Source: a virus. Taken from it: a stretch of DNA of 64,000 bases. The notes under the pieces were generated by a model. It did not search any database and was not told where the DNA came from. It saw only the letters and a list, made by a program, of their open reading frames with translations. The position numbers were made by a program, and so were the translations under genes. Shown one piece after another: positions 24,284-51,474 of the stretch; within the stretch, counting starts at the first letter, position 1; every line of letters starts with the position of its first letter. The DNA lies in IMG/VR virus record IMGVR_UViG_3300009104_001476, one strand, 5' to 3'.

Positions 24284-26122
24284 ATGTGTGGAATAATTGG
24301 ATACATTGGAGAGGAGAAAGCCTCAGATAAGATATATTCGGGATTAGAAAAATTAGAATATAGAGGTTACGATTCTTGCGGCGTTGCGGTATTTAATAAA
24401 AATACTAATGAATTAGCTTGTTCCTACCACCTCTCTGCGCCTAGTGAAATCGAATCTTATAACGCTTTACCTGAATCTTTTTGCGGCATAGGTCATACAA
24501 GATGGGCGACACACGGCGCGGTCACCTTAACTAATACTCATCCTCATAAAAGCTGTGACGACACCGTATACCTTGTCCATAATGGGGTTATAGAAAATGC
24601 TGATCAAATAAAGAAGGGGCTAGAAAACGAGGAGTGTGAATTTTATAGCGAGACAGACACAGAAGCTCTCGTTAATTTAATTGCATTTTGTTATAACGAC
24701 TCTAGCGATAAAGAGCCCGTTTTAGCAATTAACCAAGCTTTGAAAGAGGTCGAAGGGACTTACGGTCTTGCTATTATGTTTAAAGATCACCCTAGCGTCA
24801 TCTTTGCGGTTAGAAGAAGCTCTCCTTTAGTGTTGGGACTCAAAGAGGAAGAAACTTATATCTCTAGCGATACGAACGCTTTGCCTTCTGATACGGAGAA
24901 GGTTGTATATTTGGAAGATGGAGACGTAGCGGAGGTTAAAAAAGACAGCTTTAAGATTTATGATAGAAATAGCAAACAATACGATAGTAGGCGCACCGCT
25001 ATAAAAATAAAAATACCAAAAAGACACCATCAGCTTGGGAGTTACGAAACATTTTTAGAAAAAGAGATTTATGAGCAACCAGACTCGATAAGGGAGACAA
25101 CGAGAGGTCGGTTCAATAAGGATTTTGATTCTGTGATTTTAGGGGGCATAGATACCGAAAGGGACATTAAGAGGGTTCTGTTTATAGGTTGCGGCACCGC
25201 TTACCACGCTGGCCTTTTGGGTAAATACTTTATAGAAAACATAGCTAAGGTTCCCGCTAGTGTAGAGATCGCTTCAGAGTATAAATATAAGAATAACCCC
25301 ACGGAAGACGGGACTCTTGTGGTTGTGATAAGCCAGTCTGGTGAAACCATAGATACTCTAGCGGCACTGAAGGAGGCTCAAGATAGGGGGCTTGATACAA
25401 TAGCTATAACAAATACCGTCATGAGCAGTATAGCTCGTCAGGTTGAGGAGGGAATCTACCAACGTGTCGGCCCTGAGGTTTCAGTGGCTTCAACTAAGGC
25501 TTTTACGTCTCAAATAACTCTAGCTTTGATGCTGGCTATTTTAATTGGGCGTAAGAATGGGATGAGTTTATTGGAGTCAAAAAGGATGATTGGGTATTTA
25601 AGGAGGTTACCGAGCTTGATAGATCAAACTTTAAGTATGACCAAAGAAAAGGCGCGTAAGCTTGCGGTTGGACATTCTTTATTAAAAGAGATGACCTTTT
25701 TGGGTAGGCAGTATATGTACCCAATAGCTTTAGAAGCGGCGTTAAAAACGAGAGAGCTTGCCTATGTAAATACTATCGGTTATACGTCTGGAGAAATGAA
25801 ACACGGGCCGTTAGCCTCTATAAGTAGCCATTCTTTTGTTTGGGTTTTAGCTCCCCAAGAAGGATTGAAAGAAAAAAATATAACGACGATTAAAGAACTT
25901 AGCTCTAGAGGGGTAAACCATATAACCGTGGTAAAGCAGGAGGGGCAAGATTTCCCAAAAGATTGTCATGATAATTTTATAAATATACCTAAAGCTCCAG
26001 AGTTTCTTTTACCCGTGTTGGCGACTATCCCCATCCAGTTGTTTGCTTTAGAGATGGCCAAAGTCAGAAATTTAAATGTAGACAAGCCGAGGCATTTAGC
26101 GAAATCTGTTACAGTAGAATGA
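24284..26122 (+). CDS. glmS: glutamine--fructose-6-phosphate aminotransferase
   Basis: MCGIIG, LEYRGYDS, GHTRWATHG, HNGVIEN, SQSGET, EMKHGP, PRHLAKSVTVE. Confidence 0.97.
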   Translation: MCGIIGYIGEEKASDKIYSGLEKLEYRGYDSCGVAVFNKNTNELACSYHLSAPSEIESYNALPESFCGIGHTRWATHGAVTLTNTHPHKSCDDTVYLVHNGVIENADQIKKGLENEECEFYSETDTEALVNLIAFCYNDSSDKEPVLAINQALKEVEGTYGLAIMFKDHPSVIFAVRRSSPLVLGLKEEETYISSDTNALPSDTEKVVYLEDGDVAEVKKDSFKIYDRNSKQYDSRRTAIKIKIPKRHHQLGSYETFLEKEIYEQPDSIRETTRGRFNKDFDSVILGGIDTERDIKRVLFIGCGTAYHAGLLGKYFIENIAKVPASVEIASEYKYKNNPTEDGTLVVVISQSGETIDTLAALKEAQDRGLDTIAITNTVMSSIARQVEEGIYQRVGPEVSVASTKAFTSQITLALMLAILIGRKNGMSLLESKRMIGYLRRLPSLIDQTLSMTKEKARKLAVGHSLLKEMTFLGRQYMYPIALEAALKTRELAYVNTIGYTSGEMKHGPLASISSHSFVWVLAPQEGLKEKNITTIKELSSRGVNHITVVKQEGQDFPKDCHDNFINIPKAPEFLLPVLATIPIQLFALEMAKVRNLNVDKPRHLAKSVTVE

Positions 26123-34709: not shown

Positions 34710-35954
34710 ATGAAATTTAAGACTTTATACAAACGAACTACCGTTGGGAAAATCCAAGAGTGGACTATTGAAGTGGTCGGTGATAAGTACCGTACCATTT
34801 CGGGACAGCAAGACGGTAAGAAGATTACAAACAACTGGACTACTTGTTACCCAAAGAACGTAGGTAAGGCTAACGCTACTACTGGTGAATTACAGGCACA
34901 AAATGAAGCCTCTGCGAAGCACCAGAAAAAGGTTGAGTCAGGTTATCGCCACTCCATAAGCAACATCGACAAGAAGAAATTTTATGTGCCTATGTTGGCG
35001 AAAGATTTTAAAGACAAGAACCGACAGAAAGAAGTGATGGGTGAGATTGATGAATCGGGAGTGGGTGCGCCCGTATTCTCCCAACCCAAGCTGGATGGCA
35101 TACGTTGTATTGCTATGCGTGAGGGATTGTTCACTAGGAGTGGCAAGAAGATTACTGCTTGTCCTCACATTAGCGTTGCACTGGAAGATTTCTTTGAGAA
35201 GTATCCTAATGCTGTTCTTGATGGCGAGTTGTATAATCATAAGTATAAAGATGATTTCAACAAAATCATTCATCTTGTGCGTAAGCAGAATCTTACTGAA
35301 GAACATTTGGCAGAGAGCAAGAGGATGATTCAATATCATATTTATGATGCTCCAGTAATAGGTAAGGACAACCCATTCCGTAAAGGTGGAGCCTACACAG
35401 AGAAGGATTCGTTTTCGGACAGAACTTCCGTACTAGACGCACAGTTCGCTAATCTAGGACTTGATAAGTCTTGTCGTATTTTTCGTAGGAAGTTCAAAAA
35501 TGGAAGGAGTCATCAAGGTTTGACGCTTGAAGATAACCCTCTTGTTATAGTAGAGACTACCGAAATCCACGGCAGAGAGCAACTAGACCGTTGCTATGAA
35601 GATTATGTAGAAGCGGGGTACGAAGGACAGATGATTAGGCTTGACGGGCCTTACGAAAACAAGCGTTCATCAAAACTGCTGAAACGTAAAGAGTTTATTG
35701 ATGAAGAATATACTATTCTTGGGTACGAAGAAGGCGAGGGTAATCGTGAGGGAACGATTAAGCATTTTAAATTTAAGAATAAGGACGGTAGAGATTTTAA
35801 CTCAAACGTCAAAGGTACATTTGAATACCTAACAGGGCTGCTAGAAAAAGCAGACAGTTTAATAGGTAAAGAAGCAACAATCAAATACTTCAACCTTACT
35901 CCCGATGGAGTGCCAAGGTTTCCGTATGTGATTGCAATTAGAGACTACGAATAA
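34710..35954 (+). CDS. ATP-dependent DNA ligase
   Basis: QPKLDGIRC (KxDG), LDGELY, YDAP, GYEGQMIR, LLKRK, PRFP. Confidence 0.95.
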   Translation: MKFKTLYKRTTVGKIQEWTIEVVGDKYRTISGQQDGKKITNNWTTCYPKNVGKANATTGELQAQNEASAKHQKKVESGYRHSISNIDKKKFYVPMLAKDFKDKNRQKEVMGEIDESGVGAPVFSQPKLDGIRCIAMREGLFTRSGKKITACPHISVALEDFFEKYPNAVLDGELYNHKYKDDFNKIIHLVRKQNLTEEHLAESKRMIQYHIYDAPVIGKDNPFRKGGAYTEKDSFSDRTSVLDAQFANLGLDKSCRIFRRKFKNGRSHQGLTLEDNPLVIVETTEIHGREQLDRCYEDYVEAGYEGQMIRLDGPYENKRSSKLLKRKEFIDEEYTILGYEEGEGNREGTIKHFKFKNKDGRDFNSNVKGTFEYLTGLLEKADSLIGKEATIKYFNLTPDGVPRFPYVIAIRDYE

Positions 35955-39245: not shown

Positions 39246-39333
39246 GGGGAAGTGGTGGAATTGGCAGACACAACAGACTTAAAATCTGTCGAACATTGAG
39301 TTCGTGCGGGTTCAAGTCCCGCCTTCCCTACCA
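39246..39333 (+). tRNA. tRNA-Leu(UAA), class II, encoded CCA
   Basis: GGGGAAG/CTTCCCT acceptor, TGGCAGAC D-arm, ACAGA-CTTAAAA-TCTGT anticodon arm, GGTTCAAGTCC T-arm, ACCA. Confidence 0.95.
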
Positions 39334-46385: not shown

Positions 46386-46438
46386 ATAATTTTATTTTAT
46401 TCTTGTGTCTGTTTTAACTATGTGCATAATTGATAAAG

Positions 46439-47386
46439 ATGAGCGACAAAACCACTAAACTATTTCCTGACATTGTTGGTCAGGACAAAGCAAAGAAGAA
46501 ACTTATGTTCTTCCATCGAGGCTATAAAGCCTCTGGGATCATTCCACACCTTATGTTTATCGCACCCAAGGGATGCGGTAAGACCACTCTTGCCAAAGCT
46601 ATTGGTAAGAACCTTGAGGGTGAGAAGGGCAAGCCAAAGCGTTTCCTTGAGATCAACTGTTCTACTATCAAGAACGTGAAGCAGTTCTTCAATCAAGTAA
46701 TCGTACCTCACGTTGCGAATAAAGAATGTACCGTTCTTTTTGACGAAGCCAGCGAGCTTCCCAAGGATGTGACAATGATGTTACTGACCTGTCTGAACCC
46801 GAACGAGAACAATCGTAACGAGTTTGCGTATGAAGATTATGTTGTTGATTTCGATTTTCGTATCCACTCGTTTCTGTTCGCCACTACCGAAGCTCATAAG
46901 ATTTTCCATGCGTTGATGGATCGTTGCGAGCGTATTGATCTGGAGGAATACTCCTATAATCAGTTAGGCACGATCATCTCTCGTCAGATGAAAGGTATTA
47001 AGTTTGAGAAGGGCGTTCTTGAGGATGTCGCCACTATCCTGCGAGGCAACGCCCGTGCTGCTCAAAAGATGGCAAACAACATGAAATCCTACTTAAAGGT
47101 TAAGGGTTCTGATAAGTTTATGAACAAAGATTGGGAGATCATGCGTGACGAATTGGGCATCCTACCTTTAGGCGTGAATCGTATTGAGCTTATCGTGTTG
47201 AAGGCACTGAAGGAGAAAAAAGAATGTTCACTGACTCACCTTGCTGCCAAGACGGGGTTGACTCCTCAATGTCTGCGTCAAGATTTTGAGATGTACCTTC
47301 AGAAGATGAATCTGATGGAGATTACAACCAGTGGTCGTGCGCTTACCAAAACAGGGCATGAATACTTGGAGCGGGAGGATGTTTAA
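46439..47386 (+). CDS. ruvB: RuvB-like Holliday junction branch-migration AAA+ ATPase
   Basis: DIVGQ, APKGCGKTTLA, LFDEA, ATTE, LMDRC, RGNAR, C-terminal winged helix ending GRALT. Confidence 0.85.
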   Translation: MSDKTTKLFPDIVGQDKAKKKLMFFHRGYKASGIIPHLMFIAPKGCGKTTLAKAIGKNLEGEKGKPKRFLEINCSTIKNVKQFFNQVIVPHVANKECTVLFDEASELPKDVTMMLLTCLNPNENNRNEFAYEDYVVDFDFRIHSFLFATTEAHKIFHALMDRCERIDLEEYSYNQLGTIISRQMKGIKFEKGVLEDVATILRGNARAAQKMANNMKSYLKVKGSDKFMNKDWEIMRDELGILPLGVNRIELIVLKALKEKKECSLTHLAAKTGLTPQCLRQDFEMYLQKMNLMEITTSGRALTKTGHEYLEREDV

Positions 47387-48102: not shown

Positions 48103-48402
48103 ATGAAACAATTCAACACACCAACTATATTATTTATTATTGTATTTAGTATTTATTTTTTATGTGGATGTTCTTCTCCTAATACAGTGGAGTATCTTTC
48201 TCCGTCTATGAGAGGAGCTTTCGGCCCACCAGCTAAAAAGGTTGAAGATAAGTCGCCTTGGGGTGACTTGAATAAACAGTATATCAGACAGATGTGGGGT
48301 AGATTCCCGAACGGAAGGCCTTGGAAGGGATCTTATGCTAGGCCAAATCCGTGGAAACACTCATACAGAGACGATGTTTATTGGAGTTGGAATTTCAAAT
48401 AA
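48103..48402 (+). CDS. putative lipoprotein
   Basis: Hydrophobic signal ending LCGC; AGGAGG SD. Confidence 0.65.
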   Translation: MKQFNTPTILFIIVFSIYFLCGCSSPNTVEYLSPSMRGAFGPPAKKVEDKSPWGDLNKQYIRQMWGRFPNGRPWKGSYARPNPWKHSYRDDVYWSWNFK

Positions 48403-48441
48403 AAAACTTGCGTTTAGATTAACTACCCGTATAATGGGTAT

Positions 48442-48920
48442 AGTTCTTTGAGAGATTGACAATTTAAGTTGCGGAAACGCGACAACAATTTAAGCTGACG
48501 ACGGTTGGCTTAAGGGAATGGCTGAACAACCCTCCATCATAAGGGGTAAGGCATAGGGATACGTGTTAGAGTATAATCGTATGAGACACGTGTTTCTAGT
48601 AGACTGGTAAACTTGAACTGTATTGTGCACTGGTCTTGATGGTAATGCAGCAATCCATCTTCCCATTAATTTTGTGCGTGGTGCTGGGTTACAGGCCACG
48701 TAACAGGAAGAAACACAGGTTACCTCAACCGGAAGCGCGTAAGTATTCCTCGCGTCTGCAAAGGGAGAAGCAGCGGGTAACCAACGTGAGATCCCAAAAT
48801 TTCCGTAGTCCAAAATCAAAGGGCTACGGTTTCAACAAGGTCGGGAAAAACAAACGCAGTTGATGCGCCCGTTAAAGATGAGTTCACACCGAACGTGACC
48901 ATCGCCTTGTTATTTTTTTT
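48442..48920 (+). ncRNA. candidate large structured ncRNA (~480 nt), family unassigned
   Basis: Own promoter (TTGCGT 48408, TATAAT 48430), about 10 hand-found helices, ends in T8; no credible ORF. Confidence 0.7.
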
Positions 48921-48929
48921 GCCCTAATA

Positions 48930-48970
48930 GCACTTGGCACGAATCGTGCTGCCCGATTTCAACCAAGTGT
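48930..48970. repeat. 41-bp palindromic element, copy 1
   Basis: GCACTTGGCACGAATCGTGC-T-GCCCGATTTCAACCAAGTGT. Confidence 0.95.
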
Positions 48971-48981
48971 CAAGCGTAAAG

Positions 48982-48990
48982 TTATTCACA
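48982..48990 (+). promoter_or_regulatory. DnaA-box match TTATTCACA
   Basis: Matches TTWTNCACA. Confidence 0.55.
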
Positions 48991-49279
48991 CCTCAAAAAA
49001 TTTCTTAAAATCAACGAATTTCACACCGGAGAAAGTGGGGGTAAACAAGAAATTTTCAGGCATGATACCTCACAAAAGCAGGGCTTTCTTTCAAAACAAT
49101 TACCCCCTTTGTCGCTCATTAATTGCCATAATTGATTGACAAACTATTTTGCCGCTCATTTGTGATCGACAAAAAAATGCATCTAATGTGCATTTAATGC
49201 TTGTCACAGGCTTAACTATGCTTATAATGGTTATAACAGTTTGAGACATTAACACTAGAAAAAAGGAACTATATATATT

Positions 49280-50182
49280 ATGCCTATAGAAGCAAAACAA
49301 CAGATTGATGAGGGCTACGACTTCACCGCCAAACAGGTTGAAGTACCCCATCCAATCACCGGAAAAAAATCCGGTTATTACATGAACATCCGTGAAGACA
49401 CGGGCGACATCATGGGGTGGACTACTGACCGTTACGGTCTGGTTAATCACCGTGACATAGTAGGGTTTGCAGACAATGCGTTTGCTGACCGTGGTATCGA
49501 GGTTAATCGTAAAGTTTACGTGACCGAAAACGGTGCGAAGTGCCGTGCGGTTTATGACCTTATCGGTTCGGAATATCAAGCGGAAGTTCCCCAAGTCGGT
49601 GACATTATGGGCTATCGTTTGACTGCTCAAAACTCGCTTGACCGTAGTCTTCGGATGGCTTATTCGTTAGGCTTAAAGCGTCTGGCTTGTTTGAATGGCA
49701 TGACCACAACCGAGTCGGAAGTGGAAATGACAAAGAAACATTCTTTGAATGTTAACTTGAACGAGGTGCTTTCTCCAAAAGCCTTGGATACTGCTCTTGC
49801 CAAGATGAAGCAGAGCCTGACTGTTTACGGTCGGTTGTCGCAGTCGGAAGTTTCTCAAGAGCAAGGAATCATTATCCTTCAGAACCTAGCAAATGCCAAG
49901 GTGTTTTCTGAAAAGGTGCGTGAGTCTATCGCTCAAGTTTGGAACGGCCAACCAGAGGGACTTGGCAGAGGTGGAGATGCCGATAAGAGTCGGAACCTTT
50001 ACAACCTTAACAATGCCGTCACGGAGCATTTGACCTATGAGGTTGCGGATACTCGTTTCGAGTATGCAAATCGTGTGACCTCTCAAGTCTTAAAGAGGTT
50101 CGACAAGGCGACTCGGAACCAAAAAGTTTTGGAGAAACTTTGGACTCCCGCCAAAAATGATCAAATAGTGATTACTGAGTAG
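49280..50182 (+). CDS. DUF932 family protein
   Basis: DRYGLVNH, NSLDRS, RLACLNGM, NLYNLNNAVTE. Confidence 0.75.
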   Translation: MPIEAKQQIDEGYDFTAKQVEVPHPITGKKSGYYMNIREDTGDIMGWTTDRYGLVNHRDIVGFADNAFADRGIEVNRKVYVTENGAKCRAVYDLIGSEYQAEVPQVGDIMGYRLTAQNSLDRSLRMAYSLGLKRLACLNGMTTTESEVEMTKKHSLNVNLNEVLSPKALDTALAKMKQSLTVYGRLSQSEVSQEQGIIILQNLANAKVFSEKVRESIAQVWNGQPEGLGRGGDADKSRNLYNLNNAVTEHLTYEVADTRFEYANRVTSQVLKRFDKATRNQKVLEKLWTPAKNDQIVITE

Positions 50183-50818: not shown

Positions 50819-50901
50819 ACATAACCCTCTCGCCCTTTCTTTACTTTTGGGTGAGAGGGTTTTTACTTGTTAAGAATATAACTATCATTATAATTGGAAC
50901 T

Positions 50902-51474
50902 ATGAAAGAAACACTTAAAGATTTAGGGAATACCGCTTTGGATATTCTGTTAACCCTTATTTTAACTTTGCTTGCCTTGCATATGCTTTTGTTTGCTGCT
51001 GTGTCAGTAGCATCAGCGCAAGAGCTAACGCCCGACCAAACAGTTGTCGCAAAGACTATTCTTGGCGAAGCGCGTGGAGAAGGTAAGGCGGGTATGTATG
51101 CCGTTGCTTGTGTCATAGCGCAACGAGCAATTCTGCGGAACAAAACTCCAAAAGAAGTTTGCAAACAGCCTTCGCAATTTTCTTTTTGGGTTAAAGATAA
51201 AAAAACTACCCTTGACGACAGGAATAGAGCAACGGTTGAGCGGCTTATGAAGCACGATATCGAATCAGTGCGTTACGCTAAAGCTTTGGCTATTCATGTA
51301 ATGAAAGTAGATCGTTCTTATACTGACCACGCAGACCACTATTGCGCGACAAGAGTTAGTCCTTACTGGGTAAGAGGGAGGACACCTGTAAGAATCATAG
51401 GCAATCATAAATTCTTTAGAATTAACTCCAGAGTTTTTGGAATAACAAAATCTTCTGTCTTGACTCAACCTTAA
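50902..51474 (+). CDS. SleB/Hydrolase_2 cell-wall hydrolase
   Basis: TILGEARGEG..GMYAVACVI, QPSQFSFW, IGNHKF; N-terminal signal/TM. Confidence 0.88.
   Translation: MKETLKDLGNTALDILLTLILTLLALHMLLFAAVSVASAQELTPDQTVVAKTILGEARGEGKAGMYAVACVIAQRAILRNKTPKEVCKQPSQFSFWVKDKKTTLDDRNRATVERLMKHDIESVRYAKALAIHVMKVDRSYTDHADHYCATRVSPYWVRGRTPVRIIGNHKFFRINSRVFGITKSSVLTQP

Follow-up and report, generated by a model that had tools for sequence, protein, structure and literature searches.

The tRNA region of phage T4, with its species 1 and species 2 RNAs, is a phage stable-RNA cluster. A wcaG-manA-abiF cluster is known from cyanophage S-CREM1, in which matches to wcaG and abiF are found no more than 800 nt away from manA (PMC9964418). 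The manA RNA itself (RF01745) has been an orphan since 2010, being filed by Rfam and by Weinberg et al. (2010) as a probable cis-regulatory riboswitch candidate (PMC2864571). In a preprint of July 2026, Ren et al. used cryo-EM to describe manA RNAs of two structural sets that assemble in vitro, via kissing loops, into octamers, decamers, and a 60-mer cage (bioRxiv 10.64898/2026.07.01.735769); the variants that they studied are other than the one described here. ROOL and GOLLD, two phage-borne, ornate, noncoding RNAs, are likewise reported to multimerize. In rRNA operons, boxA and the Nus factors shield the untranslated transcripts from Rho. According to the crystal structure of the NusB-NusE-BoxA complex, 8 nt are recognized; the Aquifex BoxA is GGCUCCUUGGCA, the Escherichia coli BoxA differs from it at positions 1, 6, and 9, and the critical positions are G2, C5, and U6 (PMC3177189).

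Our analysis concerns a stretch of 64,000 nt (here, the window) corresponding to bases 32028 to 96027 of a 117.5-kb IMG/VR virus record that is rated 69% complete. We conclude that approximately positions 48442 to 48920 of the window probably constitute one free-standing noncoding RNA gene of a large (about 170- to 180-kb) uncultured marine phage. Rather than a single giant RNA, the 480-base stretch is a series of modules that fold separately, preceded by an antitermination leader of the rRNA type. Its largest module, manA, is already known; of the others, at least one is uncatalogued. An earlier sequence-only reading had proposed a noncoding, structured, and independently transcribed stretch, and this proposal is borne out by fold z-scores, covariation, nonconserved open reading frames (ORFs), and a promoter-like start; the positions that it gave for the promoter, the boxA-like leader, a GNRA hairpin, and a T8 run are all correct against the sequence. 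When the whole unit was folded as the plus strand and compared with shuffled sequences, its z-score was -3.0 and none of 100 shuffles equaled it. For the 3' 256 nt, the z-score was -1.9 on the plus strand and -0.1 on the minus strand, a pattern that fits an RNA transcribed from the plus strand, on which nearly every gene in the window lies.

The RNA stretch is flanked upstream by a 99-amino-acid (aa) lipoprotein-like ORF (48103 to 48402) and downstream by a DUF932 gene (49280 to 50182). The 99-aa ORF has a signal peptide, a lipobox-like FLCGC motif, and a Shine-Dalgarno sequence (AGGAGG) 5 nt upstream, and no Pfam match was found for it. Pfam matches in the wider neighborhood include a GlmS-like amidotransferase with SIS domains (24284 to 26122), an ATP-dependent DNA ligase (34710 to 35954), a RuvB-like AAA+ ATPase (46430 to 47386), and a cell wall hydrolase (Hydrolase_2; 50851 to 51474). 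The sole tRNA in the window is a tRNA-Leu(UAA) with a long variable arm (39246 to 39333), located upstream of the RNA gene at a distance of 9 kb; thus, manA is not located within a tRNA cluster here. BLAST searches with the RNA region, its 10-kb neighborhood, and the DUF932 protein gave no match among 50,697 cultured-phage records. A marine habitat is indicated by the record names of the metagenome contigs. The sigma-70 promoters suggest that the host is probably a proteobacterium and not a cyanobacterium. DnaA boxes and an ArfA-like gene, both taken from the sequence-only reading, presumably point in the same proteobacterial direction.

Relatives of the unit were collected by means of the DUF932 neighbor and conserved RNA words. 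At least 14 distinct related viral contigs, as well as marine metagenome contigs, carry the same cassette of promoter, boxA, shuffled modules, and T run, and ACAATTT(A)AG-type linkers connect the modules at many of the junctions. We named the modules T (tRNA-like), manA, H, W, Z, K, X1, and Y. Arrays that contain manA have the orders T-K-manA-Z (L008), K-manA-Z (L010), T-manA-K (L003 and L014), X1-K-Y-manA-Z (L013), T-X1-manA (L019), H-X-manA-X-H (L150), and T-K-manA-H-W-Z (L026), and manA stands alone in L012. Arrays without manA have the order H-T-W or T-W (L153, L163, L165, L169, L173, and L174), and in L016 a single T occupies the site that is syntenic with the window. In records that were searched whole, including a 178-kb record rated 100% complete, manA occurs once per record. 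A pattern scan of genome contigs for the manA subfamily gave three matches, all of them false positives in coding sequence. Like the T4 tRNA region and the S-CREM1 cluster, the unit places several structured RNAs head to tail on one strand of a phage genome, and its relatives carry tRNA-like modules. Unlike in those clusters, the modules share a promoter, a boxA, a terminator, and a repeated linker, they are shuffled between relatives, and modules W, H, K, T, and Z are without an Rfam family.

The unit is preceded by a sigma-70-type promoter at 48408 to 48435 on the plus strand, consisting of TTGCGT (48408 to 48413), a 16-nt spacer, and TATAAT (48430 to 48435), just as the sequence-only reading had it. 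Because its -35 box matches the consensus at only three of six positions, this promoter was not listed by a consensus scan. The -10 box lies within a hairpin, TACCCGTATAATGGGTA, at 48424 to 48440. TATAAT forms loop and stem of this perfect hairpin (TACCC-GTATAAT-GGGTA), which the scan lists as a terminator-like site belonging to the lipoprotein gene upstream; the terminator of that gene and the promoter of the RNA gene may overlap at 48424 to 48440. In the relatives, the promoter is close to the consensus, with TTGACA-N17-TATATT or TATACT, at the same distance from boxA as in the window.

The promoter is followed by a boxA-like leader, AGUUCUUUGAGAG, and a linker, GACAAUUUAAG, which together span 48442 to 48467 on the plus strand. 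The leader sequence AGTTCTTTGAGAG occupies 48442 to 48454, GTTCTTTGA starts at 48443, and the exact sequence GTTCTTTGAGA occurs a single time in the whole window, at the leader. The boxA of the window reads A-G-U-U-C-U-U-U-G (48442 to 48450) and keeps G2, C5, and U6. A boxA-like motif is present 5 to 45 nt past the -10 box in all arrays inspected (for example, GAUCUUUG and GUUCUUUG, with the canonical GGCUCUUUG in L026), so that the leader recognized earlier in the window is confirmed in place and is positionally conserved in related arrays. Since loose versions of this short, A/U-rich motif turn up by chance all over the genome, the evidence for boxA consists of its exact positional conservation in each array and of the single exact match in the window. 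Judged by its sequence and position, it is a candidate rrn-type antitermination signal. Like the boxA of rRNA operon leaders (PMC3177189, PMC4807359), the window motif AGUUCUUUG keeps G2, C5, U6 to U8, and a purine at position 9, and it heads a long, untranslated, and highly structured transcript; it differs in that position 3 holds U or A where those leaders have C, and in that the unit includes no rRNA. No boxB or boxC was identified.

Downstream of the leader, two linker-type repeats of ACAATTTAAG (at 48459 and 48485) flank the hairpin GUUGCG-GAAA-CGCGAC (48468 to 48483, plus strand), and both the GNRA hairpin and its flanking direct repeat had already been recognized from the sequence. A comparison with L026 indicates what this hairpin is. 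Its first 10 nt (GTTGCGGAAA) and last 6 nt (CGCGAC) are those of the 140-nt T module of L026 (7333 to 7472), and both elements sit between the same ACAATTT linkers. By this sequence comparison, the GNRA hairpin is the collapsed stem of a tRNA-like T module, a remnant left by an internal deletion. Complete T modules are 140 to 170 nt long. They combine an acceptor-like stem of 7 bp and a GGTTCGA T-arm with a D-loop-like AAUUGG, and an insert of about 100 nt takes the place of the anticodon arm; the conserved blocks of the module are GAAAGCCCCUAGUGGA and GGUGAUACGAUA. Copies are found in L016 (3238 to 3402), L026 (7333 to 7472), L019 (6514 to 6680), and L169 (4179 to 4330, minus strand). The T module of L016 stands alone, has its own promoter, and ends in an encoded ACCA followed by T7. 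None of the T modules was called by ARAGORN or Rfam. The record of the window encodes no TROVE/Ro protein, the presence of which would have hinted that the tRNA-like modules act in the manner of Y RNAs.

Three other conserved array modules, X1, K, and Y, were noted in the relatives, in the regions L013 (2310 to 2610, minus strand), L002 (5880 to 6020), and L019 (6690 to 6770). X1 has the form GCUGGGAGACGAAACACAG...GGAAGCACCAGC, K is about 40 nt long and has the form GGUGAnGnAACAAACGnCCG..AGAGGnAnCGGCC, and Y has the form UCCUGUUCAGCC...AAAGCUGGGUGCAGUCAUGUGGCAC...GCAGGA. No Rfam match was obtained for X1, K, or Y. The manA-less array L173 likewise gave no Rfam match at an E value of 1 or lower, and thus other modules are also uncatalogued.

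A reduced variant of manA (RF01745) occupies 48491 to 48669 on the plus strand. In a cmscan search against Rfam 15, which the sequence-only reading had proposed as a check, this segment aligned with the full model (positions 1 to 192) at 71.9 bits, compared with a gathering score of 55.2 (E = 2.5e-16). The reading had held that a match to a known family would remove novelty only, and this applies to the 5' half of the unit. Eleven manA copies from related phage contigs were combined in an alignment (A8), for which RNAalifold gave a structure of 50 pairs. In A8, 98.2% of the cells are paired (at most 50.5% in slid controls) and 22 of the 50 pairs show compensatory changes, a result that none of 500 shuffles matches. 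Compensatory changes occur in five of the eight pairs of P1, and the closing helix GGGAA/UUCCC is 100% paired, with two covarying pairs. The variant is reduced in that a single long hairpin stands where the Rfam consensus has an inner three-hairpin junction (model positions approximately 75 to 115), a region in which the cmscan alignment has deletions and noncanonical pairs. This long hairpin (helices 5 to 7 in A8) covaries in 9 of its 16 pairs and has a conserved 17-nt loop, AGAGUGCAAUCGUAUGA. The absence of the three-hairpin subjunction is a variant architecture and not grounds for exclusion from manA; membership was kept despite the variant junction because the model score is far above the cutoff.

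Two helices that had been found by hand in this segment coincide with manA helices: ATACGTGTT/GACACGTGT (48559/48585) corresponds to helices 5 and 6, which covary in the relatives, and GATGG/CCATC is helix 9, the final manA hairpin. A third, GGTTG/CAACC, has to be replaced, as GGTTGG is the 3' strand of manA P1 and the proposed pairing is not kept in the relatives. The window copy resembles the manA family (RF01745; PMC2864571) in its full-length match, in the P1 hairpin with its GACG loop, in the CUGAAYAA strand, in the multihelix domain closed by GGGAA/UUCCC, in the last two hairpins with the loops ACUGUA and GCAG, and in its marine phage source. It differs from the family in its location outside a 5' untranslated region (UTR), as one module of a boxA-led RNA gene, and in the exchange of the inner junction (about 75 to 115) for one long hairpin. 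The terminal loops ACUGUA and UGCAG are invariant and are complementary to each other, as they are in the Rfam consensus. This complementarity is compatible with manA assembly, as far as can be judged from loops that, being invariant, offer no covariation to use.

Hairpin H (48677 to 48700, plus strand) has the stem CGUGG/CCACG and an invariant 14-nt loop, UGCUGGGUUACAGG. Its 18-nt core, GGTGCTGGnTTACAGGCC, recurs exactly, except for one R position, in L026/L154, in L150/L157 (two copies each), in L152/L158, and in L153/L163/L165/L172, and the closing pair varies among arrays (G-C, G-U, or A-U). The contexts of H also vary, as it is found before manA, after manA, twice per array, or in manA-less arrays. 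For this region, the sequence-only reading had suggested a GTTAC/GTAAC helix with a CCAC/GTGG pseudoknot; the conserved pairing is instead CGTGG/CCACG, and the alternative is not kept in the relatives. Going by complementarity, the UUACAG of the H loop could pair with the manA loop ACUGUA.

Module W (48718 to 48782, plus strand) is a three-way junction composed of P1 (GGUUACC/GGUAACC), P2 (GCGCG/CGCGU), and P3 (CUGC/GCAG), with the conserved joints and loops UCAACCGGAAG, AAGUAUUCC, and GGGAGAA. The same nested helices had been proposed from the sequence and now find support in covariation. A covariance model (R1) that was built from the W of the window alone recovers W in L026/L154 and L153 and in all 14 marine metagenome contigs obtained by a W-specific pattern scan. 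The 16 other loci recovered by R1 represent seven distinct sequences of three lineages, among which all three stems are rewritten and the joints and loops are fixed. In these sequences, 94.6% of the cells are paired (at most 60.7% in slid controls), both partners have changed in 9 of 16 pairs, and none of 500 shuffles matches. We regard W as well supported but not proven, given that the comparison comprises three independent lineages only and that the loops were fixed by the search pattern. No Rfam match to W was found at an E value of 10 or lower in positions 48300 to 49300. A further W pattern, CGGAAN{5,7}AAGTATTCC, was too loose and was rejected; it returned 118 random loci, none with a true W. 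As MAFFT misaligned the stems of W and Z, W was aligned via the covariance model and Z was read by eye. W is followed by a hairpin, CCGUAGUCC-N9-GGGCUACGG (48803 to 48829, plus strand), with 9 bp including one G-U pair. It had been noted as CCGTAGTCC/GGGCTACGG (48803/48821) and is a good hairpin that appears in both the minimum free energy and the centroid folds; it is specific to the window, and no homolog was found among the relatives.

Module Z (48834 to 48911, plus strand) consists of the closing stem AACAAGG/CCUUGUU, an inner CGGG/CCCG helix, and a conserved UUAAAGA, so that two further helices of the sequence-only reading belong to one module by comparison with relatives by eye. The hairpin CGCA-GUUGA-UGCG within Z is specific to the window; in L008, L010, L013, and L026, Z contains a small hairpin, then TTAAAGAG, then CGCC, and then the closing stem. 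The closing stem covaries, as judged by eye, with GAGG/CCTC, GCGG/CCGC, and GTGG/CCAC in relatives and AAGG/CCTT, extended to 7 bp, in the window. The 5' part of the window Z, GGUCGGGAAAAACAAACG, looks K-like. We also considered a pairing of the conserved UUAAAGAG of Z with the boxA segment UCUUUGA, resembling an rrn leader-trailer helix. Up to seven pairs are possible, but this candidate was rejected as unsupported: both strands are almost invariant, and the lone change (TTAAAGTG in L013) is uncompensated.

The T8 run at 48913 to 48920 (plus strand), present as first described, is the presumed transcript end. In most related arrays, too, the final stem is succeeded by a T run, and the window and L008 have TTTTTTTTGCCCTAAT in common. 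The T8 run adjoins the 7-bp stem AACAAGG/CCUUGUU, which encloses a 64-nt structured insert; this is not a textbook terminator, and it was not called by the terminator scan because the enclosed loop exceeds 8 nt. GC-rich palindromes lie right after the T run in the window (48921 to 48990), in L008 (1568 to 1625), and in L010 (5245 to 5290). An example is CTTGACAC-GCCGGGACCGGTCCCGGC-GCCTGTCAAG in L008. These palindromes belong to the 41-bp palindrome family described in the sequence-only reading. In several phages, the RNA gene borders the early region that they partition.

Taken as one gene, the unit would work as follows. Transcription from the sigma-70 promoter would start straight at the rRNA-type boxA, which may recruit the NusB/NusE antitermination complex of the host. 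This recruitment would let the long untranslated transcript escape Rho and fold cotranscriptionally. ACAAUUU-type linkers would join the collapsed T, the reduced manA, H, W, the further hairpin, and Z, and the closing stem of Z together with U8 would end the transcript. The product would act in trans as a stable RNA, whole or cut at the linkers, and would exert no riboswitch control over the next gene. By analogy with the assemblies of other manA RNAs, the manA core may multimerize through loop-loop contacts, and the appended modules may add surfaces for binding of RNA or protein.

Cutting at the linkers could also be the main event. It is possible, but somewhat unlikely, that RNase E acting at the ACAAUUU linkers, or RNase P acting at tRNA-like modules, processes the unit into separate small RNAs of unrelated function, the 480-nt species being no more than a short-lived precursor. 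The repeated A/U-rich linkers that bound modules (ACAATTTAAG at 48459 and 48485) fit such processing, as do the acceptor-like stem of 7 bp, the GGTTCGA T-arm, and, in L016, the encoded ACCA of the tRNA-like module in relatives; moreover, modules recombine freely, as independent genes would. However, in the window the tRNA-like module is reduced to a 16-nt hairpin, and there is no linker between manA and H or between H and W. This explanation is compatible with the main one, of which it is a subvariant more than a contradiction.

A cis-acting riboswitch or attenuator, in which manA senses a ligand and thereby sets read-through at the Z stem and T8 into the early genes that follow (DUF932 and onward), is unlikely. 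It agrees with the classification of manA as a candidate in Rfam and by Weinberg et al. (2010), with a U-run, terminator-like end upstream of plus-strand genes, and with L002, where a classic terminator hairpin comes no more than about 85 nt after manA and precedes a gene. In the window, however, manA lies outside a 5' UTR: 250 nt of other modules, T8, a palindrome, and a separate promoter come between it and the next gene, and the relatives show a like layout. The modules H, W, and the hairpin, independently conserved, take up the 165 nt from manA to Z. From T8 to the next start codon there are 360 nt, with the 41-bp palindrome and a near-consensus promoter (TTGTCA-N16-TATAAT, 49201 to 49228, 11 of 12 positions), and in all arrays read through to the gene that follows, this gene has a near-consensus promoter to itself. 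There is no overlapping terminator/antiterminator and no sequestered ribosome-binding site adjoining manA. The module after manA differs among arrays, arrays of the same design without manA exist, and untranslated stable-RNA operons typically have a boxA in their leader. Because the neighbors of manA vary, manA-less arrays exist, the gap of 360 nt includes a promoter, and a boxA leads the unit, we infer that the unit is produced as an independent stable RNA and not as a 5'-UTR riboswitch.

The sequence-only reading had taken the stretch for a divergent member of the GOLLD/ROOL class or for a new class. Its 3' part of about 250 nt does lie outside Rfam, but the 5' part is manA, and the relatives show independent modules. 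That the unit is a member of the GOLLD/ROOL class or a single new large RNA folding as one unit is therefore highly improbable, and this interpretation is largely refuted. Size, phage origin, and the many helices fit it, and manA is reported to multimerize, as are ROOL and GOLLD, from which the same could be supposed here by analogy only. However, neither GOLLD nor ROOL gave a match, whether in positions 48300 to 49300 at an E value of 10 or lower or across the whole window at the gathering threshold, and manA is the only Rfam family at an E value of 10 or lower that bears on the unit, with nothing else in 48300 to 49300 better than an E value of 1.9. The parts of the unit occur apart and in other orders in relatives, and no long-range helix links the modules in consensus or centroid folds. 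The unit is also shorter than ROOL and GOLLD, is modular, and matches them in neither sequence nor structure. The reading had further stated that hallmarks of tmRNA and RNase P are lacking, in line with the cmscan of 48300 to 49300, which gave no match to either. Finally, a role in encoding small proteins is next to impossible and is refuted at the level of conservation: a 109-aa ORF (48490 to 48819, minus strand) and a 75-aa ORF (48636 to 48863, plus strand) exist in the window, but neither has a start signal, as was already observed for these overlapping frames, every frame over manA has stops in most of the 11 homologs, in which the frames are not conserved, and variation is concentrated in compensatory stem changes.

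We thus return to the boxA-led chain of modules as the preferred explanation. Among its possible functions, one is rather improbable but worth stating: the boxA-driven "RNA operon" could mass-produce a self-assembling manA scaffold that displays H, W, and T plug-ins on a pentamer-based cage or ring, forming an RNA-only organelle or decoy that would sequester a host factor or an antiphage nuclease during infection, and the CUGUA loop that serves manA for kissing contacts could also receive the H loop (UUACAG).

New here are module W, hairpin H, the remnant of a deleted T, and a reduced manA inside a modular boxA-led gene. In this phage and in at least 14 related contigs, manA, an orphan "riboswitch candidate" until now, belongs as one module to a self-contained stable-RNA gene led by boxA. 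The cassette setting argues against a leader-switch role for manA and fits the 2026 report of RNA-only assemblies. Furthermore, the cassette defines uncatalogued motifs (W, H, the tRNA-like module, and others) that are shuffled like domains, and it gives concrete test constructs.
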